Shown: positions 27,690 to 50,834 of the stretch, piece by piece
Layout: each line of letters starts with the position of its first letter
Numbering within the stretch: position 1 is the first letter of the stretch
DNA from: a virus
Reading direction: 5' to 3' (one strand)
Length of the DNA: 64,000 nt
IMG/VR virus record: IMGVR_UViG_3300042445_001604
Coordinates: 19,367 to 83,366 of that record
Notes under the pieces: generated by a model
The model's database searches: none
The model's input: the letters and a program-made list of their open reading frames with translations, nothing else
What the model was told of the DNA's origin: nothing
Made by a program: the position numbers and the translations under genes

Positions 27690-28290
27690 GCGAATTACTG
27701 ACAGCCAGCCAGCGATTACACTCACGCGACTAGCCAGCCAGCCCACTAGGCAGACAGCCCACTAGCCAACGCCTAGTGACAGCCAGCCCACCAGCCAGCG
27801 AGACAGAGTAGCCCACGACAGCCAGCCCATTACAGCCCATTACAGCCCACTAGACAGCCAGCCAGCCCACGACAGCCCACTAGCCCACGACAGCCCGTCA
27901 CAGCCCCGCCTAGCCCCGTTTACGACCGCCAGCCACGACAGCCCACGACAGCCCCAGAATAGGCACACCGCACGATTACGATAGCCAGCCACGACAGCCC
28001 GCCTACGCCTACGACCGACAGCCCCAGCCACCCGCCAGCCACCCGCTACCGTCACGCGACAGCCAGCCCACGACAGCCAGCCCCAACGCTCTCGCAACGC
28101 TCACGCGATAATGACAACGACAGCCCGACCACCACGACAGACAGACCACGCGACCGACCGACACAGATACAGACAGACCACCCACGACCACCAGACAGAC
28201 CGCGCAAAAACTTACCCGCACCCGCGCCGATACCCGCGCCCGACAGCCAGCCCGCGCCCGCACGGCAAGGCGCGACACGCCCGAGATAAA
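27690..28290. repeat. non-coding low-complexity repeat tract (CAGCC / GACAGCCCAC units), candidate terminus or origin region
   Basis: Dozens of imperfect CAGCC(A/C) units, strongly C/A-rich on the + strand, no credible ORF. Confidence 0.8.
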
Positions 28291-28376
28291 AAATAGTTTG
28301 TAATGTCAGCGGTATGGTGTATGTTAGGTACTACCGAGTTAGTCAACCGACATACTCACCAAACAAAGGAAACAAA

Positions 28377-28673
28377 ATGACGAACACCACCGTCCTCAAC
28401 GCCGAAGCCCAGCGGGCAGTATCGGCACTCGAAACCGCCCGCAAGATGGTTGCCGAAGCCAAGCGTATCGAAGACGCGGCAAAGGCAGTCCTCAACGAAG
28501 CACTCACCGAAGCCAACGCAACGCACGGCACGGACAGCAACGGCACGGTTCTCGTGGAGCGCGTGACCAGCACGAACACCTCGTTCGACCGCAAGACCCT
28601 CGAAGCGCTTTACAAGGAAGCATTCGACGCCACCATTCGCGTTACGACCTACACCAAACTCGTCACCAAGTAA
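28377..28673 (+). CDS. small coiled-coil protein, paralog of 39583..39870 and 42101..42394
   Basis: AAAGGA RBS, upstream promoter, downstream hairpin 28681-28702. Confidence 0.85.
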   Translation: MTNTTVLNAEAQRAVSALETARKMVAEAKRIEDAAKAVLNEALTEANATHGTDSNGTVLVERVTSTNTSFDRKTLEALYKEAFDATIRVTTYTKLVTK

Positions 28674-28990
28674 CGCCACCGCCCGCCCCGCAAGGGGCGG
28701 GCAACCCCAAGCCCACACCGCCACGACCTAGCCCCGAAGCCCCCCGCCAGCCCACCAGCCAGCGGGGGGTTTCGCGTTGCCCGCCCCAGCCACCGACACC
28801 AGCCCGCCACGACACCGCGCACACCGACCGCGTACGCCCGCGCACCGCGCACCGCGCCCCGCCACGCGCCCGCCACGCGCCCACGCCCGCCGACCCCGAA
28901 ACGCGCCCGACCGACCGCGCACACACCCGCGCCCCAAAGTATATGTTTTTTGAGCGACCGCGCCCACCACCCGCGCAACCACCGCGCTAC

Positions 28991-29019
28991 TTGCGAATGT
29001 CCGCGCTATGGTGTAGACT
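28991..29019 (+). promoter_or_regulatory. sigma-A-type early promoter
   Basis: TTGCGA-N17-TAGACT. Confidence 0.7.
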
Positions 29020-29061
29020 GATTACATCAGCAAGACACCACGAACAAAGGACACAAACAAA

Positions 29062-29235
29062 ATGAGCACCACCCCCACCTACACCGTCTGGTCAAGCGGA
29101 ACTCTCGCGCAGACCAACGCGGAAACCGAAGTTTACTTTTTCCGTTTCGATTGGGTGAATGTCTGGGCGACCAACGCAGACACCGCTAGGGCAATTGTTC
29201 TCCAACTTATGGAAGACGAATTCGCAAAGCGCTAA
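29062..29235 (+). CDS. hypothetical protein (57 aa), paralog of 38616..38792
   Basis: MSTTPTYTVWS...FFRFDWVNVWAT; AAAGGA RBS; terminator follows. Confidence 0.8.
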   Translation: MSTTPTYTVWSSGTLAQTNAETEVYFFRFDWVNVWATNADTARAIVLQLMEDEFAKR

Positions 29236-29377
29236 CGCGCCACGCGGGCGGGCGGGGAAACCCGCCCGCTTTCGCGTACCCGCCCACGACACGCCCGACA
29301 CTCTCACCGCTTGACTTTTGTTTGATACCGTGATAGACTTGCGATAGCAAGTCACCACAACGAAAGGACAAACCAGA

Positions 29378-29509
29378 ATGAACGTCATTCTCACCGCCAC
29401 CTACACGGACGGCACAGTCGAAACATTCACCACCAAGCGCGGACAGCACTACCGCCTAGTCCAAGCACTACGCAACGCGGGCGCGACCGTCACGGGCGTA
29501 CTCGCCTAG
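29378..29509 (+). CDS. hypothetical protein (43 aa)
   Basis: TTGACT..TAGACT promoter, ACGAAAGGA RBS, hairpin+T terminator 29524-29553. Confidence 0.75.
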   Translation: MNVILTATYTDGTVETFTTKRGQHYRLVQALRNAGATVTGVLA

Positions 29510-29640
29510 CACACGCACCACGCAACGCCCGCCGAGAGATTGGCGGGCGTTTTGCGTTTCCCGTCCGCGCACCCGTGCCCGCCGACCACGCTCAAAAAAG
29601 GTGTACTTTCCCCGCGCCCACCCGCCGACGTCGTGGATAC

Positions 29641-29669
29641 TTGACAAACGCCCGCGCTACTGGTATGAT
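29641..29669 (+). promoter_or_regulatory. sigma-A-type early promoter
   Basis: TTGACA-N17-TATGAT. Confidence 0.8.
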
Positions 29670-29704
29670 GATGTCATCAGCAACACCAAACAAGGAGATA
29701 CAAA

Positions 29705-29902
29705 ATGACCAGCACCCCCGCCACCGTTCTCGGTTCGGTTATGATTACCGCCGTCCTCGCGAACGGTATGCCCGTGAAAATGGTTCAGCACGTCGGTAAC
29801 GAAAACGTGCTTGACGACTACCGCGAGATGTACGCTACTCTCGTCGCGCTTGGCAAGTACCAGAGCGCCACCGTCGAAGCATACGGCTACCGCAACGCCT
29901 AA
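29705..29902 (+). CDS. hypothetical protein (65 aa)
   Basis: AAGGAG RBS, promoter and terminator. Confidence 0.8.
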   Translation: MTSTPATVLGSVMITAVLANGMPVKMVQHVGNENVLDDYREMYATLVALGKYQSATVEAYGYRNA

Positions 29903-30048
29903 CACGCGCCACACGAACGCCCCGCCGAAACGCGGGGCGTTCGCTTTTGTCCGCGACACGCCAACACCGTAAGCACTTGCGAATGTCTGCCGTCTATGGT
30001 ATACTAAAAGTAAGAAGCAACACCACACCAAACAAAGGACAAAACGAA

Positions 30049-30186
30049 ATGACCACCGTCACCGCCAACTTTGGAAACCGCACCGAGAGCGTAGACGTCC
30101 CCGACGCCTACATTGACGACGTGATTGACGACTACTTTGCGAATGGCGCGATTACCGTCACGACCAACAGCGACGCACTCGTCTAA
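30049..30186 (+). CDS. hypothetical acidic protein (45 aa)
   Basis: TTGCGA-N17-TATACT promoter, AAAGGA RBS, terminator. Confidence 0.8.
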   Translation: MTTVTANFGNRTESVDVPDAYIDDVIDDYFANGAITVTTNSDALV

Positions 30187-30393
30187 CGCCCGCCAGCGAC
30201 GCCCCCGCCGAAACGCGGGGGCGTTGTCGTTTGCGCTCATCGCGACCGCGCAACACCCGCGCCCCGCGTTGCTCAAAAAACATATACTTTTGCCCGCGCA
30301 CCGCGAGCGCCCCGCGACACGATAAAACGGTACGACTTGCGAAAATAAATAATCCCTGGTAGAGTGGTGGTACACCACGACGAAAGGAACACA

Positions 30394-30666
30394 ATGACAA
30401 ACGCCGAACTAAAACGAGAAATTCGCACGGAACTCAAACGCGCTGGCGAATGGGTATCCAAAAGTTCTACCACCGCAGTACGCAGTTTTCACAACGCAAC
30501 TAGCGGGTGGAACATTAGCGAGTTTGCTGGGAATGTCCAACTCAACTATGTTCGAAACGGAATGGGCGCGACAACGCAGGACGACTTGGCGCGAGCGTTT
30601 GCTATTCTCGCAAACGCTGGGCTAGGCGTAGAGATTAGGGACAACCGAGTGTTTGTGTCCGCATAA
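30394..30666 (+). CDS. hypothetical protein (90 aa)
   Basis: TTGCGA-N17-TAGAGT promoter, ACGACGAAAGGA RBS. Confidence 0.8.
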   Translation: MTNAELKREIRTELKRAGEWVSKSSTTAVRSFHNATSGWNISEFAGNVQLNYVRNGMGATTQDDLARAFAILANAGLGVEIRDNRVFVSA

Positions 30667-30874
30667 GCAATCGTCAAACCGAGCGGGCGGGGAGAAATCC
30701 CCGTCCGTTTTCTTTTTGCGTAACCGCGCACCCCCCGCGCCCGCCGACCACGCTCAAAAAAGGTATACTTTTTCGACCCCGCCCCACCGCGACCGTCACG
30801 ATTAGGTTGTGTCGGCAGTAGATGATATACTTGACACAACGCGGGAAACCGCCTAACCAAAGGACACAAACGAA

Positions 30875-31168
30875 ATGACCACCACATACCCCACACGCGT
30901 AATGGACACCCCTACGCTTCTCAACCAAATCGGGCAGATGAACTTCCTAGCCATCTCTGGCGGGCGTATTGCCTACGACAACAACAACGGCGTTATCTTG
31001 CCCGTATCGAACGGCTACATTGTCCGTATCGTCCTCGCTGGAAACGACACCTACCGAGTAACGCGCGAATACAAGCGTGGCACTTACACCGTCAAGCGCG
31101 AGTGGACAGATGTTTACTGTGACGAAATCGGGGAAATCGCGTATCTCGCTTCTTGCTTCCGCGACTAA
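30875..31168 (+). CDS. hypothetical protein (97 aa)
   Basis: AAAGGA RBS; terminator 31181-31208. Confidence 0.8.
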   Translation: MTTTYPTRVMDTPTLLNQIGQMNFLAISGGRIAYDNNNGVILPVSNGYIVRIVLAGNDTYRVTREYKRGTYTVKREWTDVYCDEIGEIAYLASCFRD

Positions 31169-31260
31169 AAATCAAAACGCAAACGCCCGCGCTAACCACG
31201 CGGGCGTTCTGCTTTTACCCGCGCAACCGCGAGCGCCGAAAGTATATGTTTTTTGAGTGA

Positions 31261-32670
31261 CTACCGCGAGCCGAAAATACGCCCGCCCGTACGCCCACCG
31301 CGTCCGAGCGTAATGCGCCGTCCCGCGACAGACTTAGCCGTAATGTTCCCGCCCAAAAACCCAGCGGGTGGTTTGATGAGCAACGCCGTGAGCGCGTGAA
31401 CGAGCGCGTCCACGCGGTCTGGGGATTTTCCCTCGCCCGGTATCCACGACGTCATTTGACTTTCTAGTTCCGCGAGAAACCCTATGTGATGTACGCGCCC
31501 TTGTTCGTAGGCGAGCGTAATCGGTTCTGCCCTCAACGCTTTTCCGTACTTCGAGTGAACTTCCAACACTTGGATTGTCGGGTCGATTGTTTGGATTGCG
31601 TTACGCACTAACGCCCCACCTTGATTGACTTCTGCGACGACGGGGCAACCCCACTTGCGAGCCATTGCCACAACCCGTTCTGCCCACACCGTAGGCGAGC
31701 CAAGCACCGAAGCGTCCTCAATTACCCACGATTGACGTTTGTATAGGTCGCGTTCACCCGTGCTTGCGACGACGACGATACCGCACTCATCACGGGGATT
31801 TTCAGCAACCGACGGGTCTACGCCGATTACGCGCAACGGTACTGATGACGGCATACCGTTTTGACGATTGTTTTCGATTAGTTCGTCCGTCCACAACGCG
31901 CCCTCAACCGCGTCCAACATTTCACCGTAAAGTTCTTGACGGGCTAACCGCGTACCTTCGTAAACGCCCGTGATTGCGTCTATGTATGATGACGACAAGT
32001 TGCCCGCGTTATCCATTGTTGAGCCACGCGATACCCAGATTTTTCCTGTCTTGTCCGCTTCGCCCAACAAGTCATATAAAAGTTTTACGCGCTTCGGCGT
32101 TGTTGTTGCCAAGATTTGTGGATTGCTTCCGAGTCGAGTAGCGACGCGCAAGTTATCCCACGACGACATTCCCGCTGCGTCTGGCGTCTGACGCCACGCT
32201 GCAACTTCGTCTGCCCACGAGTAGTTTGCTTGGACACCACGCAAGGAGTCTGGTTCATCTGCCGTGCCGAGCAACGCGACGTTTCCGTTTGGCCAGGTCA
32301 GACGGCGCTTCGACGGTTCATACAACGGCATCTCCGACGGCGGGGATACACTCATAATTCCCGAATCGCCCTCAACCAAAACGTCACGCACGTCCGCTGC
32401 GGTACGAGCAACTAAAAGGAAACGCAACTTTCCCTCTGATGTTACTCGCGCTTTTTCGCGTACCCATTCAGCAGCCGAGCGCGTCTTACCCGCGCCACGT
32501 CCTGCGAGAAACAAACCAACATTCCACGACGAATCTTTCGGCGGGATTTGTTCGGGTCGTCCCCAAAAGTCCCACGCCCATAGTAAGTTGTCTGGGTCTA
32601 TGCCCGCCATTGCTTCGGCGCGTTCTGCTTCGGGGAGTGCCGCTACGATTTGCGCGAGTGATTGTGCCAT
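31261..32670 (-). CDS. terL: terminase large subunit
   Basis: Walker A AGRGAGKT, Walker B WADE, TTTP coupling motif, RNase H-like VIGVDPS and SPDRVDA. Confidence 0.95.
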   Translation of the reverse strand: MAQSLAQIVAALPEAERAEAMAGIDPDNLLWAWDFWGRPEQIPPKDSSWNVGLFLAGRGAGKTRSAAEWVREKARVTSEGKLRFLLVARTAADVRDVLVEGDSGIMSVSPPSEMPLYEPSKRRLTWPNGNVALLGTADEPDSLRGVQANYSWADEVAAWRQTPDAAGMSSWDNLRVATRLGSNPQILATTTPKRVKLLYDLLGEADKTGKIWVSRGSTMDNAGNLSSSYIDAITGVYEGTRLARQELYGEMLDAVEGALWTDELIENNRQNGMPSSVPLRVIGVDPSVAENPRDECGIVVVASTGERDLYKRQSWVIEDASVLGSPTVWAERVVAMARKWGCPVVAEVNQGGALVRNAIQTIDPTIQVLEVHSKYGKALRAEPITLAYEQGRVHHIGFLAELESQMTSWIPGEGKSPDRVDALVHALTALLIKPPAGFLGGNITAKSVAGRRITLGRGGRTGGRIFGSR

Positions 32671-32767
32671 TTACTCATCATACCACTCAAAAAACCTATA
32701 CTTCTGGCAACCGCCTGCCGAGCAAAAGAAAAACCCCCCGCCCGTAGGCGAGGGGCTGGGGGAAGAC

Positions 32768-32935
32768 TTAGTAGTCTTCGCGCGGGTCGTACCCGCCTGC
32801 CCCACGCGCCACATTGTGGCACGGAAGACAGCGTTCCACGGGGTCGCCCGCGTGGAAGAACAGCACGGGGGAAAAGTCCCCGCATGCCTCGCACTCGCGC
32901 TCGCGAGTGAAGGGGTTTTCGTCAAGGTCGAACAC
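32768..32935 (-). CDS. small Zn-ribbon protein (CxxC...CxxC)
   Basis: GTG after CGAAAGGA; TTGACT..TAGTCT promoter. Confidence 0.7.
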   Translation of the reverse strand: MFDLDENPFTRERECEACGDFSPVLFFHAGDPVERCLPCHNVARGAGGYDPREDY

Positions 32936-33109
32936 GAGAAAATCCTTTCGGTTGGTGGAACACCAGACTAACACACATCACACACAAAGTCAAGTCCCGA
33001 CGCACCGCGTAGCCCCCCGCGCTGAAAGTATATGTTTTTTGAGTAGCCACCCCGAAGTCCGCCCCAAAAGGAAAACCCCCCGCTTCCGCGAGGGGCTTCC
33101 GTGTCCGCG

Positions 33110-33361
33110 TTACCGCGAGCGACGAGCGTAGCGAGGGGCGCGATAAGTTACCGCGTTCCAAGCGAACAGAATTACCGAGATGGTCAGCGCACCGATTGCT
33201 TCTGCGAGCGCCATACCGCCGACATAGAACTCAAAACTTTCGCCGTACTTGATTGCGTCGGTGATGAGAATGAGCGAGATAAATCCCGCAACGCCCAGAA
33301 AGAAAAGGGCGACGCCCGCGCGTACTTTCCGCGCGGAGTTGGTGTTGGTGGTGTTTGTCAT
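33110..33361 (-). CDS. small two-TM membrane protein (leaderless)
   Basis: TTGACA-N18-TATACT-N6-ATG; two hydrophobic segments. Confidence 0.8.
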   Translation of the reverse strand: MTNTTNTNSARKVRAGVALFFLGVAGFISLILITDAIKYGESFEFYVGGMALAEAIGALTISVILFAWNAVTYRAPRYARRSR

Positions 33362-33365
33362 AGGA

Positions 33366-33557
33366 CTAGTATATCACTTTGTCCAGCGCAATGTCAAATG
33401 GTTCGAAGCCGAGCGCGTTGCCAATTTCGATACCGTTTGTGCGAGCGTAAATGCGAGCATTCACGAGCGAGTTCGACGTGATTTTCACCGTGTCGTATTC
33501 GAGTGCCGTCACGCCGAGCGCTTCGAACTCGAATGTGTATGCGTTGTTATTTGTCAT
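33366..33557 (-). CDS. hypothetical protein (63 aa, leaderless)
   Basis: TTGACA-N17-TATAGT-N6-ATG. Confidence 0.75.
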   Translation of the reverse strand: MTNNNAYTFEFEALGVTALEYDTVKITSNSLVNARIYARTNGIEIGNALGFEPFDIALDKVIY

Positions 33558-33714
33558 ACACCCACTATACCAAGTAACGTAGCGTTTGTCAAGTCGCAAG
33601 ATGAGCGTGTCGCCAACCCCCGCCCGCTACTCAAAAAACATATACTTTCCCCGACGCCCGTCGCAGGAAACACGGAAGCCCCCCACCCAAAGGTGAGGGG
33701 CTTCTTTGCGAGGA

Positions 33715-33819
33715 CTACTCGCCGTAGTAGCCGTAGTCCTCGTCCGTGCCAAACCCCGCGCTGGCGAGCGCGTCGGCGTCCGCCCAAGCGTCGTCGCCGT
33801 CGTAGTCGTCAAAGTCCAT
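33715..33819 (-). CDS. 34-aa highly acidic peptide (MDFDDYDGDDAWADADALASAGFGTDEDYGYYGE)
   Basis: ACGACGAAAGG RBS, TTGACT..TAGACT promoter, terminator 33677-33703. Confidence 0.8.
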   Translation of the reverse strand: MDFDDYDGDDAWADADALASAGFGTDEDYGYYGE

Positions 33820-33993
33820 TGTCCCCCCCTTTCGTCGTTGCCACCAGTCTACCCCATAGCACCGACAAAGTCAAGCAACGACACACCGAGCGAGGCTCAT
33901 CACCCGCGCACGGAAAGTACACCTTTTTTGAGCCACGCCCCGCGCACAGCAAAACGCCCGCCGTTTCCAGCGGGCGCTTGCGAGAGGCGGGCG

Positions 33994-34446
33994 TTACACC
34001 CGCGAGGCGCACACCGGGCCGATACCCGCGCTAACCGACTTCGGGTCGGTGAGGAACGCGCTACACACACAGCAGATACCCGTTTCCACGCCCCACGCTT
34101 TCGCTTCGTCAAGGGTCATACGGTCGTCAGCGGTGATGAGGCGCATTGCGCCCTGCTCGAAAACGAACGTGTTGTTCGCCCAGTCGAGTTTCTTGGCGTA
34201 GAGGCGTCCGCTCTCACGCGAACGCTGAATGCGGTAAATGTCGCCGTTTGCGAGGCGGTACATTCCGAGTTCGAGTTCGACGAACGAAACCCGCGAGGCG
34301 GGCTTGGGCATTGCGAGCAAAAACTCAATGAGTTCGCTCGCTTCGCGGACGGTCAAGCCAGCCGACTTGCGCTCGGCAAGGTCGTACTCGCGCTCACTCG
34401 CGAGCGAGGTGAGGAACGAAATTTGCTTGGGAGTTGCGGGGTTCAT
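33994..34446 (-). CDS. DUF6011-like Zn-binding protein
   Basis: C-terminal GICCVCSAFLTDPKSVSAGIGPVC; N-terminal PATPKQISFL helix module. Confidence 0.8.
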   Translation of the reverse strand: MNPATPKQISFLTSLASEREYDLAERKSAGLTVREASELIEFLLAMPKPASRVSFVELELGMYRLANGDIYRIQRSRESGRLYAKKLDWANNTFVFEQGAMRLITADDRMTLDEAKAWGVETGICCVCSAFLTDPKSVSAGIGPVCASRV

Positions 34447-34647
34447 CTTGTGTCCTTTCGGTGGTGGGTGCTTCGTGCTTCCAGTCTAACACACACCTAC
34501 GACAAACGCAAGTCACGACACACATTCGGCGTTTCCGCGAGCGCCGACGGCGCACCCGCGCTCGCCCCGCGCGAAAGTATATGTTTTTTGAGCCAGCGGG
34601 GAAAAGAAAAACCCCCGCGCAAGGAGAATACGCGGGGGGCTTTCTTT

Positions 34648-34758
34648 TTAGAGTTGGATACGCTCTCCCGTGATGATGTTCACCACGACCGCACCCGGCC
34701 CGAACGCTGCTTCCATTTCGTAGCGTTCCTCGTCAGAGATTTCGCGCTTGTCGCTCAT
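34648..34758 (-). CDS. hypothetical peptide (36 aa)
   Basis: TTGACA..TAGACT promoter, GAAAGGGA RBS, terminator. Confidence 0.7.
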   Translation of the reverse strand: MSDKREISDEERYEMEAAFGPGAVVVNIITGERIQL

Positions 34759-34945
34759 TTCTCGTCCCTTTCTCTTTTGATTTGTTATCACTAGTCTACA
34801 CTATCTGTTTTGATTTGTCAAGTCAGACCGCACATTGTCTTTGTCAATGTATAAAGTGTGTCGCGCTAGATTTTTAGTACTGTTAGTGATACAATGCTAG
34901 ACCGCAAAAAGAAAACCCCCGCATAGCGGGGGCTTCTTTGTCAGG

Positions 34946-35473: not shown

Positions 35474-35587
35474 TGCTTGTGTCCTTTCGTTGATTATTAG
35501 TATTGACTTCACTAGCCTAACACGACCAAATAAAAAAGTCAAGCCCGCCACGCGCAACCGCACGACGGACTTGACTTTTGTTAGAGA

Positions 35588-36013: not shown

Positions 36014-36015
36014 TG

Positions 36016-36186: not shown

Positions 36187-36229
36187 TCTGCTATCGTACC
36201 ACAATTACTTTGTGTAACAACGGCGCGTG

Positions 36230-42993: not shown

Positions 42994-43163
42994 TTTGTTT
43001 CCTTTCGTCGTGTGTTTGTCCTGCCCTATCAGTATAGCGACTATCTCGCCACTTGTCAAGTCTGACCGCACGATAGTTTTGCGGGCGCGTCGCCACTCAA
43101 AAAACCTATACTTTCGAGCGACGAAAAAAGGACGGGCGCTTTCGCGCCCGCCCCCGTCACCCG

Positions 43164-43301
43164 TTAGAGAAACTCAATCGGGTCGCGGTCCTCGAAAATA
43201 TCTTCGAGTTCCGAGAGCGAAAACCCGTCAGAGTTTTCCCAGAAGTCCGAGAGTGCTTCGCGGATACGGTCGCCCTGCTCGTCGGTCGTGTGCTTGTCCA
43301 T
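43164..43301 (-). CDS. 45-aa acidic peptide
   Basis: Conserved RBS; MDKHTTDEQ...ELEDIFEDRDPIEFL. Confidence 0.7.
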   Translation of the reverse strand: MDKHTTDEQGDRIREALSDFWENSDGFSLSELEDIFEDRDPIEFL

Positions 43302-43343
43302 TGTGTCACCGTCCTTTCGTCGTGTCGTGGTGTACTACCCACC

Positions 43344-43616
43344 TTACACTATGACGGTCGGTCTGTCAAGTTCACCCGTCAAGTGGTCGAGTTCGGTCAT
43401 CACCACGCCAGCACGGGCGAGTATCTGCCCGACGGTCACACCTAACGCGCTCGCCACCCGTTCGAGTAGTTCGCTGGACATTTCCTTTTTTCCGTGCTCG
43501 ACGTTGTTCAGGTGTCCGACGGCAACGTGAGCGAGCGACGCCACCGTTACTCCGTAGAGTTGTTGCTCGGTTCGCATTTCGCGTATCGTGTACCCGACGG
43601 CTTCTCTCATCAGCAT
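43344..43616 (-). CDS. XRE-family HTH regulator, ClgR-like
   Basis: MLMREAVGYTIREMR...HLNNVEHGKKEMSSELLERVASALGV resembles actinobacterial ClgR. Confidence 0.75.
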   Translation of the reverse strand: MLMREAVGYTIREMRTEQQLYGVTVASLAHVAVGHLNNVEHGKKEMSSELLERVASALGVTVGQILARAGVVMTELDHLTGELDRPTVIV

Positions 43617-43620
43617 ACGG

Positions 43621-43917
43621 TTACAATACCACGCGGTCGAGTGCGTCGTCGAAGAAGTCCTCGGCGAGTCCTGAGAAGGCGCTCGCCGTTGTGCTGAAAG
43701 AGTAGACGGCTCGGTCGGTCGAGTCGAGTACGCACTTGGCGAGTACCGCGCTTCGCGCAATCGCGTCGGGCAGACTGGCGTACCATTCGTCCCACGCGTT
43801 CACCACGCCGTCGTCCCACGCCAAACGGTAGCCGTTCTCACCGTCGTCGAGTTCGGTAATCGTCACCCGCGCGTCGTCCACGGGGAAGTCAATCAGAAGT
43901 TGCTCGTCGTATCCCAT
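43621..43917 (-). CDS. hypothetical acidic protein (98 aa)
   Basis: TAATG-coupled to the upstream gene. Confidence 0.75.
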   Translation of the reverse strand: MGYDEQLLIDFPVDDARVTITELDDGENGYRLAWDDGVVNAWDEWYASLPDAIARSAVLAKCVLDSTDRAVYSFSTTASAFSGLAEDFFDDALDRVVL

Positions 43918-44330
43918 TACTCGCCGTCCTTCCAAAGGTCGCCGTCCGCGCCGTAATGTTTCCAAAGCACCTCGGCTTGGGCAATCGCTTCGTCGAGTTC
44001 GTGAAAGACTTCGTTCAGGTCTTGGTCGCCGTCCTTGCGAGAGCAAACCTCAAACCACGGGTTGTTGTCCCAAATGAAGTAGTCCTCGCCCTTGTCCGCG
44101 AACGCTTGGAGTTCCGCGTCCGTGTTGATACCGAAGTCCCGCAGGTCGTCGGTGTACCGCACGACCGAGTATTCGTCGTCAGTTGATTTGCGAATGTTGA
44201 TTCGCATTTCACCATTCCGCGCGACATAGAAGCGCGGGTCGGGGAGAGTGCTGTCTTGCCAAACGATTTCGTAGTCGCTCGACCAAGTGTAGAAGCAAGC
44301 GTCTTGCTCGTACTGCTTGACTTCACTCAT
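43917..44330 (-). CDS. hypothetical acidic protein (137 aa)
   Basis: TAATG-coupled; WDNNPWFE motif. Confidence 0.8.
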   Translation of the reverse strand: MSEVKQYEQDACFYTWSSDYEIVWQDSTLPDPRFYVARNGEMRINIRKSTDDEYSVVRYTDDLRDFGINTDAELQAFADKGEDYFIWDNNPWFEVCSRKDGDQDLNEVFHELDEAIAQAEVLWKHYGADGDLWKDGE

Positions 44331-44467
44331 TAGTCCACCTCGCAGAAGTGGTTTGCCATTGAGATTTCGAGTTCCTCGGAAGTCGCGCCCTTGTCGTCCT
44401 TGCCACAGTTGTCGCAAGTCACCGCGTAGGTCACGCCCTCTGTCGGAGTGTGTGGGTTTAGTTCCAT
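44330..44467 (-). CDS. small CxxC..HxC protein (45 aa)
   Basis: Conserved RBS. Confidence 0.7.
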   Translation of the reverse strand: MELNPHTPTEGVTYAVTCDNCGKDDKGATSEELEISMANHFCEVD

Positions 44468-44546
44468 TGTGTTTCCTTTCGTCGTTTGTTTTTCCATTGT
44501 AGCAGGAAAGGGGACGGGACGCAAATCGCGCCCCGCCCCGCGTGTC

Positions 44547-44984
44547 TTACACGAACATCATTGAGGTTACGAGCGTGTCCTCTTTGTGGTCGTTGTGGTA
44601 CGAGGTCGTGGACTTCGAGAAGTCAACCTCGATACACCGCGCGTCAGTCAAGTTCCACTCCCACGCAATCCCGTAGCGGGTCAGCGCGGAGATGACGAGT
44701 TCGCCGTACACGGAGAGAGTTCCGTCGTCCGCGACCAAGCCGTCGTGGTTGAAGAAAACGGTACGCGCTTCGTGGTAGTCGTTTCCCGACTTGTGGTAAG
44801 CGTCGTCGCCCGAGATGTTCACGGACTGTCCCTGACCGCCGAACGACCAAATCGTGGCGGGGTTGGTGTGCTCACCGAGGTCGGCGCACGAACGGCAACA
44901 CGATACGACATTTCGTCGAACGCGAACGCCACCTGCGCGGAGTTCCTTGCTGAACTGCTTGACTCGAGTTTCGAGGTTTTCCAT
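44547..44984 (-). CDS. hypothetical protein with CCxxC motif (145 aa)
   Basis: TTGACA..TACAAT promoter, conserved RBS. Confidence 0.8.
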   Translation of the reverse strand: MENLETRVKQFSKELRAGGVRVRRNVVSCCRSCADLGEHTNPATIWSFGGQGQSVNISGDDAYHKSGNDYHEARTVFFNHDGLVADDGTLSVYGELVISALTRYGIAWEWNLTDARCIEVDFSKSTTSYHNDHKEDTLVTSMMFV

Positions 44985-45071
44985 TTTGTTTCCTTTCGTC
45001 GTGTGTCTTGCTGTTCTTTTATTGTAGCACAGGTGACGGACATTTGTCAAGTCCGCCACCCGCGCGTGTCG

Positions 45072-45236
45072 CTAGACGATTTCGTCCGCGTAGTCAATCG
45101 TGAACTCTCCACCAACCGCGTCGAACTCGTCCATTGACATTCCACGAGCAATCTCAATCGCTTCGTCTGGGTCGTTGGCTTCGACAGTTGTGTTGTAGTT
45201 CACAATCCGCGTTGCTGTGATTTCGTACTTTGCCAT
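45072..45236 (-). CDS. DpnD/PcfM-like small protein (54 aa)
   Basis: MAKYEITATR...VEANDPDEAIEIAR pattern; promoter and RBS. Confidence 0.7.
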   Translation of the reverse strand: MAKYEITATRIVNYNTTVEANDPDEAIEIARGMSMDEFDAVGGEFTIDYADEIV

Positions 45237-45386
45237 TGTGGCTTCCTTTCGTCGTTGTAGTCAGTATAGCAGTTATCCCCGACAAGTCAAATTCATTTTG
45301 CTCGGCGCGTCGTGGTCGAAAAAGTATACCTTTTTTGAGCGAGGCGCGAACGGGCGAAGCGGGCTTCCGCCCGCCCCGCGCGTTGG

Positions 45387-45746
45387 CTATCGGTTCATCT
45401 CGAAAGACGGGTCGCACTTGTAGCAGTACGCTTCGTACCCGTCGCGGTCAATCGGCTTCCCGCAGTCGTCGCAGAGGATACCAGCGGTGAACGGTTCTAC
45501 CGCGCTTTTCATCTGGACGGCTTCCACCCAGTCGGCTTCGACGGTCTGCTCGGAGAAGCACGACGGGCAGAGAAGTCGTCCGTCGTCGGTCAGCGTTTGC
45601 TCGCCAAAGAAGTTCGCGCAGTCCACGCAGTCAAAGATGAATACGAGGTTCTTGCGCTCGCCGTCTTTAAGTTCGGTCTGGTACTGAAACCAGTCCGTGT
45701 CGCAGGTCACGCAGTCGAAGTTGTTCCAGTCGTGTTGGTGTGTCAT
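45387..45746 (-). CDS. multi-CxxC Zn-finger protein (119 aa)
   Basis: Five CxxC pairs; conserved RBS. Confidence 0.8.
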   Translation of the reverse strand: MTHQHDWNNFDCVTCDTDWFQYQTELKDGERKNLVFIFDCVDCANFFGEQTLTDDGRLLCPSCFSEQTVEADWVEAVQMKSAVEPFTAGILCDDCGKPIDRDGYEAYCYKCDPSFEMNR

Positions 45747-45836
45747 TGTGCTTCCTTTCGTCGTGTGTTTGTGTTGCTATCTCTCTATCATAGCCACGAG
45801 AGGCGAGGTTGTCAAGTCCTCGCCCCTCGCGTGTCG

Positions 45837-46205
45837 CTATGCCCAGACGATAGTTGCGTTCTGAACGCCGTCCTTTGTGAACCGCCACATCTCGCCGTCC
45901 TCGCCACGGAACGACATTGCGCTATCGCCTATCGCGTGACGGAGAATGGTGTGGAGAAACACTTCGGTAATCGTGTGCCACTTGCTGTCGAAAGCGTTGA
46001 GAACGAACTCGTCGCTGTCGTACATAAAGTCGAACCCCCTCGCCAATACTTCCTGTTCGAGGTCAGTCGGAATGTCCACCGACCACATAGCCATTTCCGA
46101 GTTGTTGTGCTCCTCGTATGTCTTGGCGAGGTCGGCAAGTACCGCTTCTTTTTGGTCGGTGGGGATAATGATGTTCCCCTCGTGATGAACTGCGTAGTAA
46201 CCCAT
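45837..46205 (-). CDS. hypothetical protein (122 aa)
   Basis: FRGEDGEMWRF motif; conserved RBS. Confidence 0.8.
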   Translation of the reverse strand: MGYYAVHHEGNIIIPTDQKEAVLADLAKTYEEHNNSEMAMWSVDIPTDLEQEVLARGFDFMYDSDEFVLNAFDSKWHTITEVFLHTILRHAIGDSAMSFRGEDGEMWRFTKDGVQNATIVWA

Positions 46206-46291
46206 TGTGTATCCTTTCGTCGTTTGTTTGGTGCTGTCTGACTATGGTAGCACGATTGGGCGCGGAAGTCAAACTCCCACGCCCCACCGTG

Positions 46292-46828
46292 TTATCCGTC
46301 CTCGCCCAGAGCCTCGTCGCGCAAGCGAATGTGCTCGGCTAGGTCGTCGGGGTCAATGTCGGTTGTGTACCCACACTCGTCGCACGATACCGTTTCGGCT
46401 TCGAGGTTCACCGTGCCCATAGTTCCCTCGTGCTGGCAGGTGACGGTGAGAGGCGGGTTGAGGTATCGGTTCGCAATGGCGCTCGCCGTACCAGCGCGTT
46501 GCTCGTCGGTTGCGTTCTCGACCTCTGCCCAGTCCTCGTCCGTCCACTCGCTCGTGTCAATGACTTCGAGGTTTTGTGCCGTGCCGAATGAACCGTCGGT
46601 GGCGAAATAGGTGCTCGCCCGTTCGGGTATGAGAAGGTGTCCCAGTTTCGCGCTGACGCGACTATCGAACTCGTCCTCGCCGTCACCGTCGGGGCGTACC
46701 CACTCCTCGCTGTCGTTGTCCCACCACGACGCCGTGCCAATGCGTGACATTAGCAGTTCGTCGTCCACCCAGAAGTTGCCGTTCTCGGTGTCGTAAAAGA
46801 CCGTGAAGTAAATCTGCTTGCTCGCCAT
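46292..46828 (-). CDS. acidic hypothetical protein (178 aa)
   Basis: AGGAGA RBS; operon with two upstream small genes. Confidence 0.8.
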   Translation of the reverse strand: MASKQIYFTVFYDTENGNFWVDDELLMSRIGTASWWDNDSEEWVRPDGDGEDEFDSRVSAKLGHLLIPERASTYFATDGSFGTAQNLEVIDTSEWTDEDWAEVENATDEQRAGTASAIANRYLNPPLTVTCQHEGTMGTVNLEAETVSCDECGYTTDIDPDDLAEHIRLRDEALGEDG

Positions 46829-46830
46829 TG

Positions 46831-47007
46831 TTACTTCTCCTCTGCTTTGTATTCGTCAAGGAAACGGAGAACGAAAAGGTATGCTTCCTCTGCGCCCTTT
46901 GCGTATGAGTAGTCAAGACCGTCGCCGTCAAGGTCGGTGTCCTGTTGTTCCGTAGCAAAGATATCTGCTTGTCGCGTGAGAAAGTCACGCAGTTCTTGTT
47001 CATTCAT
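46831..47007 (-). CDS. hypothetical protein (58 aa)
   Basis: MNEQELRDFL...; fills the operon gap, GAAGGA RBS. Confidence 0.7.
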   Translation of the reverse strand: MNEQELRDFLTRQADIFATEQQDTDLDGDGLDYSYAKGAEEAYLFVLRFLDEYKAEEK

Positions 47008-47009
47008 TG

Positions 47010-47156
47010 TTACTGTCCTTCCGTGAGTTGGTTGTAGATGTTCTCGAACGCCTCGCGCGCAAACTGGTCGGGGTCGTTCTCGTCGAGGAACTGACCAATA
47101 AAGCCAGTCAGAATGTCCGCGTGGATTTCGGGGACGGTGATGTTGATGTTATTCAT
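47010..47156 (-). CDS. hypothetical protein (48 aa)
   Basis: TTGACA..TATGAT promoter, conserved RBS. Confidence 0.75.
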   Translation of the reverse strand: MNNINITVPEIHADILTGFIGQFLDENDPDQFAREAFENIYNQLTEGQ

Positions 47157-47236
47157 TTGCTTTCCTTTCGTCGTTTGGATAGTTCTATCATAGCGAACGC
47201 GAGGGCGAATGTCAAGTCCGCCCCCGCGTGTTGCCA

Positions 47237-47560
47237 TTAGGTCAAGTCGGACTTGGTGCTGTACGCCCACATAGCGCCGACCTGTGCTTCCAAGAAGTCA
47301 CGCGCCAAACTCTCAATCGCGTCACGGAAGTCGGCAAGCCCATTGTTTGCCCACGCGCCCCACACAGTAATGCTGTCGTTGTCAATAGCGTCTGCGAGCG
47401 TGTAGTAGTCCTTTTCCAGCACCTCGTCAATGCGCTCGTGGATAGCGTCCCAGCCAGCGGACGGGTCGCTGAACAACTGACCAAGAGCGTAGCCCTGTGA
47501 AAGTTCCGTGTAGAAACTCTGCTGTTCAGGTGTGAGTGTGTTCCAGAAATCGTAATTCAT
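47237..47560 (-). CDS. hypothetical protein (107 aa)
   Basis: TTGACT..TATTAT promoter, conserved RBS. Confidence 0.8.
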   Translation of the reverse strand: MNYDFWNTLTPEQQSFYTELSQGYALGQLFSDPSAGWDAIHERIDEVLEKDYYTLADAIDNDSITVWGAWANNGLADFRDAIESLARDFLEAQVGAMWAYSTKSDLT

Positions 47561-47637
47561 TTTGTATCCTTTCGTCGTTTGTGTTTTTATAATAGCAGGT
47601 TTGGGTGGCGAAGTCAAATCCTCGCCACCCGCGCCTG

Positions 47638-48123
47638 TTACCAACTTGCTTGATACTCGAAGTCCCAGCCCTCTAACTTGGGGTTGGAGAGGATTTTTCC
47701 GAGAGCCTCGCGGGTCTGCTCCAAGTCCTTCCAGTACCACTCGTCAATCTCTGTCGAGCCGAAGAAGAACCCACCCTGCGGAGGCAGGAGGTCGGGGTCG
47801 CGCTCTGTGAGAGTTTCGTGAACCAAGTCGCGCAGTTCCACCAACTTCTCGCGGGACACCCACATTGGTCGGCAGTCGTCCTCGCCGTCCGCGCAGTTGT
47901 CCACGAACCACTGGTGAACCGAGTTCACCTTGCGCCAGTAGGCAATCGTAACTTCGACACTCCCAAACGGAACTTCGTCCCGAATGTCAGAGAGTTCCAG
48001 TCCAGCGAACTCCAACAGTTTGGCGAACTCTGGGTTCTCCTCCTGATAGAACTCGCCATTGCGTTGTCCATAGTTTTTCCCCGAAACGCCTTTGGAGGCT
48101 CGGAGGTATTGGTCTAGTCCCAC
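47638..48123 (-). CDS. conserved phage hypothetical protein (MGLDQYL...YWRK.N..H.WF...YQASW family)
   Basis: Characteristic motifs; conserved RBS. Confidence 0.85.
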   Translation of the reverse strand: MGLDQYLRASKGVSGKNYGQRNGEFYQEENPEFAKLLEFAGLELSDIRDEVPFGSVEVTIAYWRKVNSVHQWFVDNCADGEDDCRPMWVSREKLVELRDLVHETLTERDPDLLPPQGGFFFGSTEIDEWYWKDLEQTREALGKILSNPKLEGWDFEYQASW

Positions 48124-48211
48124 TTCATTTCCTTTCGTCGTTTGTTGTTGGTGCGGAGTGCTACCGCATTAGTTTTACAATAGCACCCCGCGTTGGGAAT
48201 GTCAAGTCCGA

Positions 48212-48487
48212 TTACTCGAACTTGTCACCCTCGATTTCCGTGTGTTCCCGAACAAGGTAAAAATCGTGTTCCTCGTTCTTGGGGTCGAACGCGCGTTGGA
48301 ACTCTGCTTCATCTTGGAAGTAGAACCAAATGCGCTGGTCGAAGTCCTCGTCCTCTACCATTTTCTCGTAGAGGTCGGGGTCGTTGAGAATGACAACTTG
48401 TGCCATTGTGTCACCGGGAATGTAGCCCGAAGCGGGATTGACTTCATCTCGCCATTCGTAGTCCACCCAAGTTACTCGTTCAGACAT
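48212..48487 (-). CDS. hypothetical acidic protein (91 aa)
   Basis: Promoter and conserved RBS. Confidence 0.8.
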   Translation of the reverse strand: MSERVTWVDYEWRDEVNPASGYIPGDTMAQVVILNDPDLYEKMVEDEDFDQRIWFYFQDEAEFQRAFDPKNEEHDFYLVREHTEIEGDKFE

Positions 48488-48573
48488 TGTGTTTCCTTTC
48501 GTCGTGTTTGTCATAGTGCCATTGTAGCAACAATGCGGGGAGAAGTCAAATCCAACTTCTCCCCGCGTGTCGC

Positions 48574-48987
48574 CTAGTAGGTTGCGGGCGTGATGTTGTC
48601 GCCCAAGAACGAGAAGTGCTCAACGAAATCGTTGATACTGATGAACCTGCCCTCGCCCTTGTTGTTGTAGGCAGTTGCCTCACCATTCAGGTAGCGATAC
48701 TTCTCCGAACCAATGTTGAGAATGACAGCCACCCAGCCATCTGCGAGGTGCTTCTGAAAGAACTCCCCCCACTCGACTTCGGGTTCGTCTGTATCGTCGT
48801 CCGCGCTCCACGCGAACCAGTCAATTCCGTCGCCGTCCTCGTTGTCCATAAATCCGAACAGCGTCTGTCCGTCGTCAGTCTTGCTTCGGAGGAGTTCGAC
48901 ATTGCACTTCGCAATGTCCGCGAGGAATGCTTCCTCGTCCTTGACGGCGAAGTAGTTAGTTCGCCCCTGTGCAATGTAATTTGCCAT
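48574..48987 (-). CDS. hypothetical protein (137 aa; RTNYF.VKD...GSEKYRYL family)
   Basis: TTGACA..TATATT promoter, conserved RBS. Confidence 0.85.
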   Translation of the reverse strand: MANYIAQGRTNYFAVKDEEAFLADIAKCNVELLRSKTDDGQTLFGFMDNEDGDGIDWFAWSADDDTDEPEVEWGEFFQKHLADGWVAVILNIGSEKYRYLNGEATAYNNKGEGRFISINDFVEHFSFLGDNITPATY

Positions 48988-49162
48988 TGCGTTTCCTTTC
49001 GTCGTTTGTCAGTGGTATTCAGTTGTAGAACCAATATAGCAAATATATCTCTGCTTGTCAACTTGTGTCCGCGAGCGCCGTACTCAAAAAACATACACTT
49101 TTGCAAAAAAGTGGCGGGACTCCCGCAATGGGAATCCCGCCGAGCCACGACGAAATGGCAAG

Positions 49163-49204
49163 TGGTGCTGAGGGAATCGAACCCTCCTACGCTCCAAGAG
49201 CACC
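49163..49204 (-). other. tRNA-like minihelix (acceptor stem + T-arm only)
   Basis: GGTGCT-N12-GAGGG-TTCGATT-CCCTC-AGCACC-A; no room for D and anticodon arms. Confidence 0.5.
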
Positions 49205-49212
49205 TGTGTCCG

Positions 49213-49470
49213 TTAGGCGAACAATTCCTGTCGAGCGGTTGGGTCTACGGGCTTTCCGTAGTTTCCGAGGAATCCGAATCCTGCTCCGTTTCCCTCCTCG
49301 TCTTTCGAGAGAATGAGGTAGGTACCGTCGGTGAACTCGACAACCACGCCGATTTCTCCTGCGTACCACATCATCTCGTCGAGTTCTCGGTTGCTCATTG
49401 AGCGAATCGAGGCGACGGTCTTTCCAACCAGTGAACCGAACTCGCGGTCCACGTATCCTTGCTTGTCCAT
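49213..49470 (-). CDS. hypothetical protein (85 aa; SKDEEGNGAG motif)
   Basis: TTGACA..TATGCT promoter, conserved RBS. Confidence 0.8.
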   Translation of the reverse strand: MDKQGYVDREFGSLVGKTVASIRSMSNRELDEMMWYAGEIGVVVEFTDGTYLILSKDEEGNGAGFGFLGNYGKPVDPTARQELFA

Positions 49471-49555
49471 CTTTTTCCTTTCGTCGTGCGTCGTTGTTGA
49501 TAGCATAGGGGCTGGCCCTCCGTTTGTCAAATCGACTCGCGGAGGGCGCTCGCCG

Positions 49556-49753
49556 TTACGCTACGGTGACCCAATCCATCGTGACGGAGAGGAGGTTGTC
49601 GTAGTCCGCCGACATTGCTTCGGTGCGGTACTTCGAGATTTCCTCTGCGGGCACGCCGTTGTTCTTGAGTGCTTTCTGGACGGACGCGATGATACCGAAT
49701 GCGTTCCCATCCTTGCCCGTCAACTGGACGGTGATGTTGTCGTACTTTGCCAT
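49556..49753 (-). CDS. conserved phage small protein (LTG.DGNAF.I family)
   Basis: VQLTGKDGNAFGII...AMSADYDNLL. Confidence 0.8.
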   Translation of the reverse strand: MAKYDNITVQLTGKDGNAFGIIASVQKALKNNGVPAEEISKYRTEAMSADYDNLLSVTMDWVTVA

Positions 49754-49754
49754 G

Positions 49755-49859
49755 CTATTTCCTTTCGTCCTCGGGTTCCCGTACAGTCACGGTTCCCGTT
49801 TCGATATCGATGTGGGTCACGGTGATACCCATGCTCAGTGCGAAGTCGGTCATGTTCAT
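49755..49859 (-). CDS. hypothetical peptide (34 aa)
   Basis: Same GACGAAAGGAAATAGCATG start context as the downstream gene. Confidence 0.55.
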   Translation of the reverse strand: MNMTDFALSMGITVTHIDIETGTVTVREPEDERK

Positions 49860-49918
49860 GCTATTTCCTTTCGTCGATTTGTCTTGCTCTGCCAGTATAG
49901 CGGTTTACCCTACCGTTG

Positions 49919-50215
49919 TCAAATCGAACTTCTCGGCTTCTTGAGGAGTCCCGATGCGCGTGCGGAATCAACCCTCTTTTTGATTGTGGTTCGCGGAACA
50001 TTGAAGTGCTCGGCGAGGACTTTGTCGGTGTGGTAAACCCCGAACCTATGAGCCATCAAGTACAGGTCGGTCACTTCCTCTTTCTTGGTTCTGTATGTCT
50101 GGGCTGGTCGGTTGTTGAGGTAGTGAATGAACAAGTCCTTTCGGGCTTGCGCCGTCAACATCTCGCGTGTGGAGGAGTCCTCGAGAATGAGTTCTACGAG
50201 TTTCGCTTTGTTCAT
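49919..50215 (-). CDS. HTH-like protein (98 aa)
   Basis: LAEHFNVPRTTIKKRVDSARASGLL. Confidence 0.7.
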   Translation of the reverse strand: MNKAKLVELILEDSSTREMLTAQARKDLFIHYLNNRPAQTYRTKKEEVTDLYLMAHRFGVYHTDKVLAEHFNVPRTTIKKRVDSARASGLLKKPRSSI

Positions 50216-50221
50216 CGTCGG

Positions 50222-50380
50222 TCACCCCACCTGCATCAGTGCGTCGCAGAGTCCACAGTCGTAGGAGTCACCCACGCCACCGTTGTCCTTCTCGAACGTG
50301 ACGTGCACCCACCGTTCAATCGGGTGGGCACAGTCAACGTCGTCGGGGAGGAGGAGCGTACGGCGCTCGCCGTTACTCAT
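50222..50380 (-). CDS. small Cys/His protein (52 aa)
   Basis: CAHP...CGLC; overlaps the upstream stop. Confidence 0.6.
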   Translation of the reverse strand: MSNGERRTLLLPDDVDCAHPIERWVHVTFEKDNGGVGDSYDCGLCDALMQVG

Positions 50381-50690
50381 CGTCGAACCCCTGAGGAATC
50401 AGGTTGAGGAATCCCTCGTTTGGGTCGCCGTCTACGGTGTGAACCGCGTGGACGAATCGGAGTCCGCACGATTCCTCGTACCACTCCTGCACCTGCTCGA
50501 GCATGGCGTATGCATCCATATCGCTCGCCGAGATGAGGGGGTCGTAACCGTACTCCGCCATCTGCGCCATCTGAGCGTCGTCCATCAGGATGTAGATTTT
50601 GTGGCATCCGTCGAACGCGATACCGCGTGCGTCGCAGAGTGCTGACTCTACTGCACCCCAGCCAGTCTGGCCCTTGAGTTTCAGTTCCAT
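50373..50690 (-). CDS. hypothetical protein (105 aa; IAFDGCHKIY...SCGLRF family)
   Basis: TTGACA..TATACT promoter, conserved RBS. Confidence 0.85.
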   Translation of the reverse strand: MELKLKGQTGWGAVESALCDARGIAFDGCHKIYILMDDAQMAQMAEYGYDPLISASDMDAYAMLEQVQEWYEESCGLRFVHAVHTVDGDPNEGFLNLIPQGFDDE

Positions 50691-50834
50691 TTTGTTTCCT
50701 TTCGTCGGTTTGTCATTTGGTCTTGCTCCATCAGTATAGCGACTATGTCATACCGTGTCAAGTCCATTCGGAAAAAAGAATCCGACCCACTGGCGACAAG
50801 AGTTTAGGACGACAAGACCAGTGGGTCGGAAGTG

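Follow-up and report, generated by a model that had tools for sequence, protein, structure and literature searches.

Between positions 28290 and 50800 of the 64,000-nt window analysed here (bases 19367-83366 of the 83,366-bp IMG/VR virus record IMGVR_UViG_3300042445_001604; CheckV completeness 49%), about 57 small open reading frames (ORFs) and the gene for the large terminase subunit (TerL) are distributed over both strands in about 41 predicted transcription units. This array is probably a hyperplastic accessory region of the kind described for the promoter-early stem-loop (PeSL) units of T4-type phages, shaped by recombination within its repeated expression signals, with a recurrent 19-bp site that most likely serves as a protein-binding site and not as a site of recombination. 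PeSLs are sigma-70-like promoters fused to stem-loops in several registers, and lie in hyperplastic regions upstream of ORFans (Arbiol et al. 2010, PMC2839356; Comeau et al. 2014, PMC4122927).

Small genes built from shared expression signals

Genes were called from codon usage and Shine-Dalgarno sequences, followed by corrections by eye, which gave 57 small ORFs of 25-178 aa in addition to TerL (469 aa). An earlier reading of this DNA from its letters alone (the sequence-only reading) had described about 50 small-gene cassettes over the same interval, and the gene calls confirm both this content and the orientations that it gave, namely a plus-strand block at 28377-31168 (7 genes), a lone plus-strand gene at 40038-40145 and minus-strand genes everywhere else. 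The nearest relatives in IMG/VR by TerL identity are three records designated G001 (97%), G002 (96%) and G003 (81%). Because the ratio of nonsynonymous to synonymous polymorphism (pN/pS) is low in comparison with the G002 orthologues (pooled 0.34 over 42 ORFs; below 0.55 in 41 of the 42), the small ORFs are real genes under purifying selection. The single exception is a miscall, the real gene at that locus being the 35-aa ORF at 40038-40145, which the sequence-only reading had read correctly and whose product is conserved in G002. Nearly all products are ORFans and most match no Pfam family; those with domain matches include DUF6011 and DUF3846 proteins and a zinc-ribbon protein. Paralogous cassettes, which had been thought to be scattered through the array, amount to two pairs only, 29062/38616, whose members are mutually inverted, and 39583/42101, although the members of each pair do carry a similar 5' leader.

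Matches to sigma-70-type promoters number 21 in 28-40 kb, against 4.6 ± 2.0 expected from shuffled sequence, and 18 in 40-52 kb, against 3.7 ± 2.0, nearly all of them on the gene strand. In 41 of the 57 genes a promoter of the form TTGNNN-N16-18-TANNNT lies 26-53 nt ahead of the ATG, frequently as ACTTGACA or ACTTGCGA with an ATGTC extension, and 43 genes carry the leader (ACGAC)GAAAGGA 4-11 nt before the ATG; three genes are leaderless (TerL, 33366-33557 and 36016-36186). T-tract terminators in 28-40 kb amount to 36, against 17.4 expected. Judged by these predicted signals, most of the small genes are independent transcription units assembled from shared parts: a near-consensus sigma-A promoter, a Shine-Dalgarno leader and a GC hairpin. 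Since the promoters are of host type, the region is probably driven by them and hence expressed early.

The sequence-only reading had also proposed a uniform cassette grammar. The promoter, leader and hairpin are indeed shared, but the spacers between genes fall into three kinds. Compact composite spacers (77-90 nt, minus strand, mainly at 44.4-49.6 kb, 44468-49555) run from a short conserved box (GACACGCG) after the stop codon to a GC hairpin, the -10, the leader and the ATG; they are located at 44468-44546, 44985-45071, 45747-45836, 46206-46291, 47157-47236, 47561-47637, 48124-48211, 48488-48573 and 49471-49555, with one more at 40482-40570. The compact hairpin holds the -35 hexamer of the next promoter in its loop or 3' arm in at least nine spacers, and the -10 once. 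Compact hairpins (n = 10) have z-scores of -3.5 to -8.0, and hairpin stems persist in G002: over the 150 pairs scored, 4 changes are compensatory, 10 are one-sided and 4 break the pair. In the second kind of spacer, a hairpin with a T-tract is followed by a promoter 7-20 nt further on. Expanded spacers, the third kind (about 20, of about 140-390 nt, 28674-45386, listed on the plus strand), have the 19-bp site set in GC-rich DNA on either side, after a hairpin with a T-tract and before a promoter. The G+C content is at least 50% in 38 of the 48 array spacers and reaches 67-71% in three.

Cassette turnover between relatives

G001 and G002 are colinear with the window at 80-92% nucleotide identity, on a single strand throughout, and differ from it by at least 10 whole-cassette gains, losses or replacements. 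At the eight resolved junctions, the genome that contains the extra DNA bears a direct repeat at both edges, and in each case the repeat consists of a regulatory element, namely similar terminator hairpins at window positions 29287, 32711/32723 and 37331, a -35 box and its surroundings at 36475, a -10 region at 28.8-29.0 kb, and the leader at 49751 (20 identical bases), 40789 and 44325. Every resolvable junction lies inside inter-ORF regulatory DNA, none of the resolved junctions between either relative and the window lies between two 19-bp sites, and no segment between inverted 19-bp sites is flipped in G001 or G002. Shared cassettes hold their order and orientation in both genomes; in G001, a homologue of the 32768-32935 cassette is found at another slot. 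Among relatives with 72-81% TerL identity, homologues can be detected for only about 10 of the 57 small genes, with the anchor genes of the region (below) retained.

These comparisons support the modular and fluid region that the sequence-only reading had supposed, in that whole cassettes are inserted, deleted or replaced between close relatives and few genes are shared further out. That reading had proposed testing whether content, order and orientation vary among relatives with breakpoints at the spacers or 19-bp sites; the content does vary and the breakpoints are in spacers, but order and orientation are kept and no breakpoint falls at a pair of 19-bp sites. In Logan contigs from four lake metagenomes, searched over 31.0-50.9 kb, contigs were short, at 3-8x depth, and yielded no population-level evidence on cassette order; the few apparent joints have sides of less than 30 nt and are repeat artefacts.

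On the PeSL-like reading, host RNA polymerase would read the units at once on infection, as early genes, while the hairpins would insulate them from one another. Regulatory parts repeated about 40 times would permit homologous recombination between them, either within one genome or between co-infecting relatives, and each event would delete, insert, duplicate or replace a gene together with its signals. Recombination of this type would thus lead to fast turnover of content with conserved order. The same mechanism has been proposed for the PeSL cassettes of T4-type phages (PMC2839356, PMC4122927).

Phage identity and genomic setting

Phage-type markers in the window include minus-strand structural genes for a major head protein (7068-8987) and a portal protein (24657-26339). 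The portal is 69% identical to that of DSL-LC01, a metagenome-assembled Actinomycetia phage (129 kb, Dishui Lake), 60-66% identical to those of the 186-194-kb Microbacterium phages Pumpernickel, Cece and Big4, and 48% identical to those of Arthrobacter phages Racecar and Atuin; portal, head and TerL kinship all lie with actinophages. IMG/VR holds 145 TerL relatives, and sequence of the phage is present in lake-water metagenomes from many studies; no RNA run is listed as containing it. The layout of DSL-LC01 matches that of the window (an AAA ATPase, then a VWA/CobT-like protein, some 38 small genes, TerL and, after a few more genes, the portal), a region that is not discussed in its description (PMC10611076). 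From the portal similarity, the synteny with DSL-LC01, the TerL relatives and the occurrence in lake metagenomes, we infer that the window derives from a large uncultured freshwater actinobacterial phage of the DSL-LC01 group. A whole-region megablast search against GenBank phages gave no match.

The array is placed between the terminase-portal-head module and a conserved pair of genes at its far edge, encoding a VWA (CoxE/CobT-like) protein (50835-52637, minus strand) and an AAA_5 ATPase (52727-53791, minus strand), both in synteny with DSL-LC01. Upstream of TerL, sigma-A-type promoters occur at 11-17 per 10 kb in the nearest relatives and in G003, versus about 0 downstream, and other branches of the clade have other repeated promoter types. 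DSL-LC01 itself (10795-29305) contains a 16-copy repeat of its own (ATTCTAAAGATGTTATAAT type), always gene-oriented and 25-45 nt before a shared ACGACGAAAGGA leader; its orientation and place before the leader mark it as a family of extended -10 promoters without a -35. The leader is conserved clade-wide, and promoter types vary by lineage.

The 19-bp site

The recurrent site is bipartite and asymmetric, 19-21 bp in length, with the consensus RCTCAAAAAA-NN-TRTACTTTY (core CTCAAAAAA-NN-TRTACTTT), and the centres of its two arms are about one helical turn apart. There are 23 copies in the window versus 0.05 expected, 22 of them intergenic, and each of the 23 occurrences of CTCAAAAAA in the window is a copy of the site. 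They extend over 28936-49101 (28.9-49.1 kb) in both orientations, starting on the minus strand at 28936, 31239, 33025, 33914, 34574, 35953, 36700, 37664, 38544, 40208, 40874, 42561 and 45321, and on the plus strand at 29591, 30272, 30753, 32686, 33630, 37264, 39467, 41743, 43096 and 49083. No copy exists elsewhere in the 83-kb contig, including 45 kb of structural genes. Only G002 (22 copies) and G001 (17 copies) carry the site besides the window; it is absent from DSL-LC01, Pumpernickel, G003 and the other 77 TerL-related loci searched.

In orthologous copies in G002 the core is invariant, with substitutions and indels in the flanks. In G001 the second arm is altered in all 17 copies (TACATT in 12, TACACT in 5), a concerted change indicative of homogenisation or of co-evolution with a partner. 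The placement claimed in the sequence-only reading, between a terminator and the next -35, was found for most copies scored: the site begins 47-97 nt past the upstream stop codon in 18 of 20 gene-upstream copies and ends 21-46 nt ahead of the -35 in 12 of the 14 copies with a detectable promoter, and would therefore lie inside DNA predicted to be untranscribed. Relative to the downstream gene, 11 of the 20 copies scored are in forward and 9 in reverse orientation, and the copy at 45321 is flipped in place in G002; the site is predicted to function in either orientation. Short inverted repeats beside the site are inconsistent across copies.

The site is most likely a sequence-specific binding site for a phage or host protein that would modulate neighbouring promoters. 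Its form recalls the monomeric two-domain repressors that bind stoperators (PMC9283540). Judged from the sequence comparisons, it is not the recombination site that the sequence-only reading had suggested it might be; the repeats at the junctions are terminators, -35 or -10 elements and the leader. In G002 (record 3300032303_001548), a run of about 25 A adjoins a 19-bp site at about 38.0 kb, within an 838-bp insertion relative to window position 37331; the run may be an assembly artefact or a real homopolymer.

Comparison with known systems

As in the PeSL regions of T4-type phages, dozens of composites of a strong host-type promoter and a GC stem-loop precede small ORFans in the array, the stem-loop overlaps the -35 or the -10 in compact units as it does in PeSL subclasses on record, the units cluster in a variable region flanked by conserved modules, and indels or replacements between close relatives have their junctions inside the units (the eight resolved here). 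By contrast, the array belongs to an unrelated lineage, whose head and terminase proteins are kin to those of large Microbacterium, Arthrobacter and Gordonia phages. The likeness is one of mechanism, not of descent. The array also differs in its long conserved leader, an additional crossover point, and in the expansion of about 20 spacers by the 19-bp site and a polar GC word (below), both of which PeSLs lack. Promoter and terminator activity, demonstrated for PeSLs along with excised mini-circles, is predicted from sequence for the units here. By analogy, the PeSL system, which the sequence-only reading did not name, is nonetheless closer to the array than the integron is.

The stoperators of Cluster A mycobacteriophages, bound by repressors of the L5 gp71 type, are likewise short asymmetric sites present in more than 20 copies in promoters and short intergenic gaps of an actinophage; they too change with lineage, and an asymmetric site in two parts would be apt for a monomer that has two DNA-binding domains (PMC9283540, PMC6550527). 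However, stoperators are 13-mers whose orientation follows transcription and matters, whereas the site here is 19-21 bp long, occurs in both orientations, and is confined to one 20-kb region and to DNA outside the predicted transcripts; no repressor or integrase was identified in this genome, which is 49% complete. Cluster O mycobacteriophages, also actinophages, carry upwards of 30 copies of an invariant, partly intergenic 17-bp repeat without assigned function, the variable centre of which is biased by the direction of transcription, and one gene indel there is flanked by direct copies (PMC4351075). That repeat is a perfect palindrome found genome-wide, with 8-9 SigA promoters predicted, whereas the site here is asymmetric and regional, accompanies about 40 promoters and does not flank the indels.

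In the early or host-takeover regions of phages SPO1, T5 and T4, multiple strong promoters of host type, along with terminators, serve a large set of small early genes. No sequence relationship to them was found, and both function and timing are only predicted here.

Weighing the alternatives

The 19-bp sites might instead be where a site-specific recombinase acts, cassettes being excised, inserted or flipped as in an integron or invertase system. As in an integron array, small gene units that look individually mobile stand in line, separated by a repeated site. The sites are numerous and intergenic, occur in both orientations and have two arms about a central dinucleotide that varies; the first arm may resemble the A-tract half-site of the Hin/Gin invertases. 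One site is inverted in place in G002, an inverted pair brackets TerL, and a serine recombinase of about 250 aa is encoded by DSL-LC01 and by a complete 135-kb relative. However, the relatives that possess this enzyme are without the 19-bp site, and neither a tyrosine nor a serine recombinase was found in the 83-kb contig, G002 or G003, which extends the earlier observation that none is visible in the window; the wider search suggested by the sequence-only reading thus recovered small serine recombinases only in complete, site-less relatives, and no tyrosine type, PF00589 being absent from the contig, G002, G003, the complete 135-kb relative and DSL-LC01. Nor was an integrase found in the genome as recovered (49% complete). 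The site arms are not inverted repeats of each other, no imperfect palindrome resembling attC was found, site orientation is mixed, the cassettes bear their own promoters, which integron cassettes do not, and the comparisons with G001 and G002 place the junctions off the sites and reveal no inversion between them. The integron analogy of the sequence-only reading is therefore abandoned, and we regard recombinase targets as a very unlikely explanation.

A role for the site as a second class of promoter, middle or late, used by host RNA polymerase with a phage factor, in tandem with the early promoters and as the sole promoter of some genes, also appears unlikely. The second arm, as TATACT, does fit TANNNT, a site 16 nt ahead of the ATG is the only promoter candidate for the gene at 37337-37648, and the partly similar, gene-oriented repeat that lies 25-45 nt before the Shine-Dalgarno sequence in DSL-LC01 is clearly a promoter. 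On the other hand, 9 of the 20 gene-upstream copies scored face away from the downstream gene, the distance to that gene varies from 15 to 211 nt, and the site has neither a TG extension nor a -35. A sigma-A -10 element, considered as its identity, is further weakened by the 5 of 23 copies that read TGTACT, with G where the essential A at position 2 of the hexamer is needed. No phage sigma factor was found in the complete relatives, in which WhiB-like genes are present. Finally, the array could be an ordinary series of small phage genes organised in long operons, its promoters and hairpins being chance features of GC-rich DNA; in actinophages, it is common for numerous small genes of unassigned function to lie upstream of the terminase (for example, genes 1-74 of Pumpernickel). 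Yet promoter matches are 4-5 times the shuffled expectation and on the gene strand, the hairpins combine z-scores of -3.5 to -8 with compensatory changes, indel junctions coincide with promoter, terminator and leader elements, and spacers of 77-390 nt part most genes, whereas the genes of Pumpernickel abut tightly. Chance is hence a highly improbable source of these signals.

Several observations nevertheless weigh against the PeSL-like reading. Although the claim that each gene has its own unit holds for the 41 genes with promoters and, as regards GC hairpins, for most genes, about 16 genes are without a promoter of their own and belong to six operons of 2-4 genes (for example, 44467 to 43344 and 47156 to 46292). 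TerL, a clade-conserved protein with tandem helix-turn-helix (HTH) domains and a peptidoglycan-binding protein all lie inside the array, and at least TerL and the HTH protein, which is in the position of a small terminase (TerS), are conserved and probably not early. Compact hairpins have no U-tracts, making their strength as terminators uncertain, and the DNA upstream of the -35 is GC-rich, in contrast to the AT-rich DNA of PeSLs. Promoters, terminators, early timing and monocistronic transcripts are predictions, junctions can be resolved in three genomes only, and the edges of several replacements are ambiguous. The tandem-HTH protein (34946-35473) was considered as the binder of the 19-bp site by analogy with L5-type two-domain repressors and was rejected, because its HTHs are invariant clade-wide and its gene usually sits immediately before TerL, in the small-terminase position; the helices of both HTHs do not differ among the window, G001 and G002, vary hardly at all in relatives without the site, and so do not co-vary with it.

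A polar GC word and the expanded spacers

The word HCCGCGC occurs in 84 plus-strand copies within 27-46 kb, whichever way the genes run, and is never preceded by G. Over 25-45 kb, CCGCGC is found 81 times on the plus strand versus 14 times on the minus strand, with the same bias in plus-gene and minus-gene blocks. HCCGCGC is restricted to the spacers of the region and almost wholly missing elsewhere in the contig; G002 shares it, and it is not found in G003 or DSL-LC01. We conjecture that it may be a Chi-like or other polar signal. The expanded spacers, with their 19-bp site and HCCGCGC, both confined to predicted untranscribed DNA that separates a terminator from the following promoter, might even represent a separate, lineage-specific layer over the PeSL-like array, having a genome-level role and not one in the expression of single genes, but we put this forward tentatively and consider it somewhat doubtful. 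Such a layer could be a set of some 20 operators of a single global switch protein, which would gate the terminase promoter as well; alternatively, it could be a Chi-like polar signal near a genome end, combined with a protein-binding site, which would protect the region or stimulate recombination and hence accelerate cassette exchange.

Between the virion genes and the plus-strand block lies an 885-bp non-coding tract (27492-28376) of C/A-rich short repeats (CAGCC / GACAGCCCAC units), which is a candidate for an origin, a pac region or a genome end. One relative (L095) has a repeat-rich non-coding tract between TerL and portal, with a different unit.

Individual genes and cassettes

The plus-strand block (28377-31168) consists of seven single-gene cassettes encoding proteins of 43-98 aa, with a promoter detected in six and a leader and hairpin terminator in all seven. 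G002 has four of these genes and G001 one, and none was found beyond these relatives. TerL (31261-32670, minus strand) was recognized by Pfam Terminase_6N/6C and PHROGs; its promoter is an extended -10 (TGGTATGAT) with the start codon 6 nt further on and a 19-bp site in the place of the -35, and a second 19-bp site lies 3 bp past its stop codon.

The tandem-HTH protein (34946-35473, minus strand; 175 aa) carries in its first HTH a recognition helix, TRERVRQI, like that of sigma-70 region 4.2, the part of sigma-70 that reads the -35 box. Homologues are present at 53 related loci, mostly directly upstream of TerL; the six small genes that separate it from TerL in the lineage of the window are read as an insertion. 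An AlphaFold model (pLDDT, the predicted local distance difference test score, 86) has no significant whole-model fold match in the PDB, the weak top matches being sigma factors. The protein could be a small terminase or a competitor for -35 boxes. The gene at 35588-36013 (minus strand) encodes a 141-aa protein whose peptidoglycan-binding match is weak, below the Pfam cut-off, and whose homologue adjoins TerL in DSL-LC01. An XRE/Cro-type HTH protein (43344-43617, minus strand; about 90 aa counting from an upstream ATG) is encoded by the final gene of a four-gene operon.

The lone plus-strand cassette at 40038-40145, whose product contains a CxxC...HxxC motif, has its own promoter and leader, and its promoter stands back to back with that of 39583-39870. 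A sequence scan revealed a cassette without an ORF at 36733-36928 (minus strand), comprising a promoter and a terminator with a predicted fold of about 160 nt and -51.8 kcal/mol; in this slot (36.7-36.9 kb), G002 has a different, coding cassette, with edges at the terminator and the next -35. The ORFan at 37337-37648, for which the 19-bp site is the sole upstream element, is unusually divergent in G001, and the ESM Atlas provided no informative relatives for it.

Directly 3' of the stop codon of 49213-49470, a tRNA-like minihelix (49100-49215, minus strand) is formed by an acceptor stem and a T-arm with GGTTCGATTCC, without a D or anticodon arm, and is followed by a strong terminator and a 19-bp site. 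About 150 bp at the minihelix are 100% identical in G002, versus about 87% in the neighbourhood. Neither ARAGORN nor Rfam matched it; more generally, ARAGORN found no tRNA, and Rfam gave no match at E ≤ 0.1 over 27-52 kb. In the virion module, two giant minus-strand ORFs are located at 9110-15760 (2216 aa), with PHROG matches that combine MuF/portal-like, protease-like and DNA-binding proteins, and at 16824-23573 (2249 aa), with no Pfam match.

Significance

The analysis maps, in concrete terms, about 40 predicted actinobacterial sigma-A promoters together with leaders and terminators, and shows the points at which genes enter the region. The 19-bp site and the polar GC word are well-defined and statistically solid signals, and the concerted change of the site in a sister lineage offers a way in, as matching site variants to protein variants could reveal the partner. 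With junctions resolved at base level in three natural relatives, the PeSL principle, in which repeated promoter-terminator units both express and shuffle accessory genes, would extend from T4-type phages of Gram-negative bacteria to abundant uncultured actinophages of lakes.

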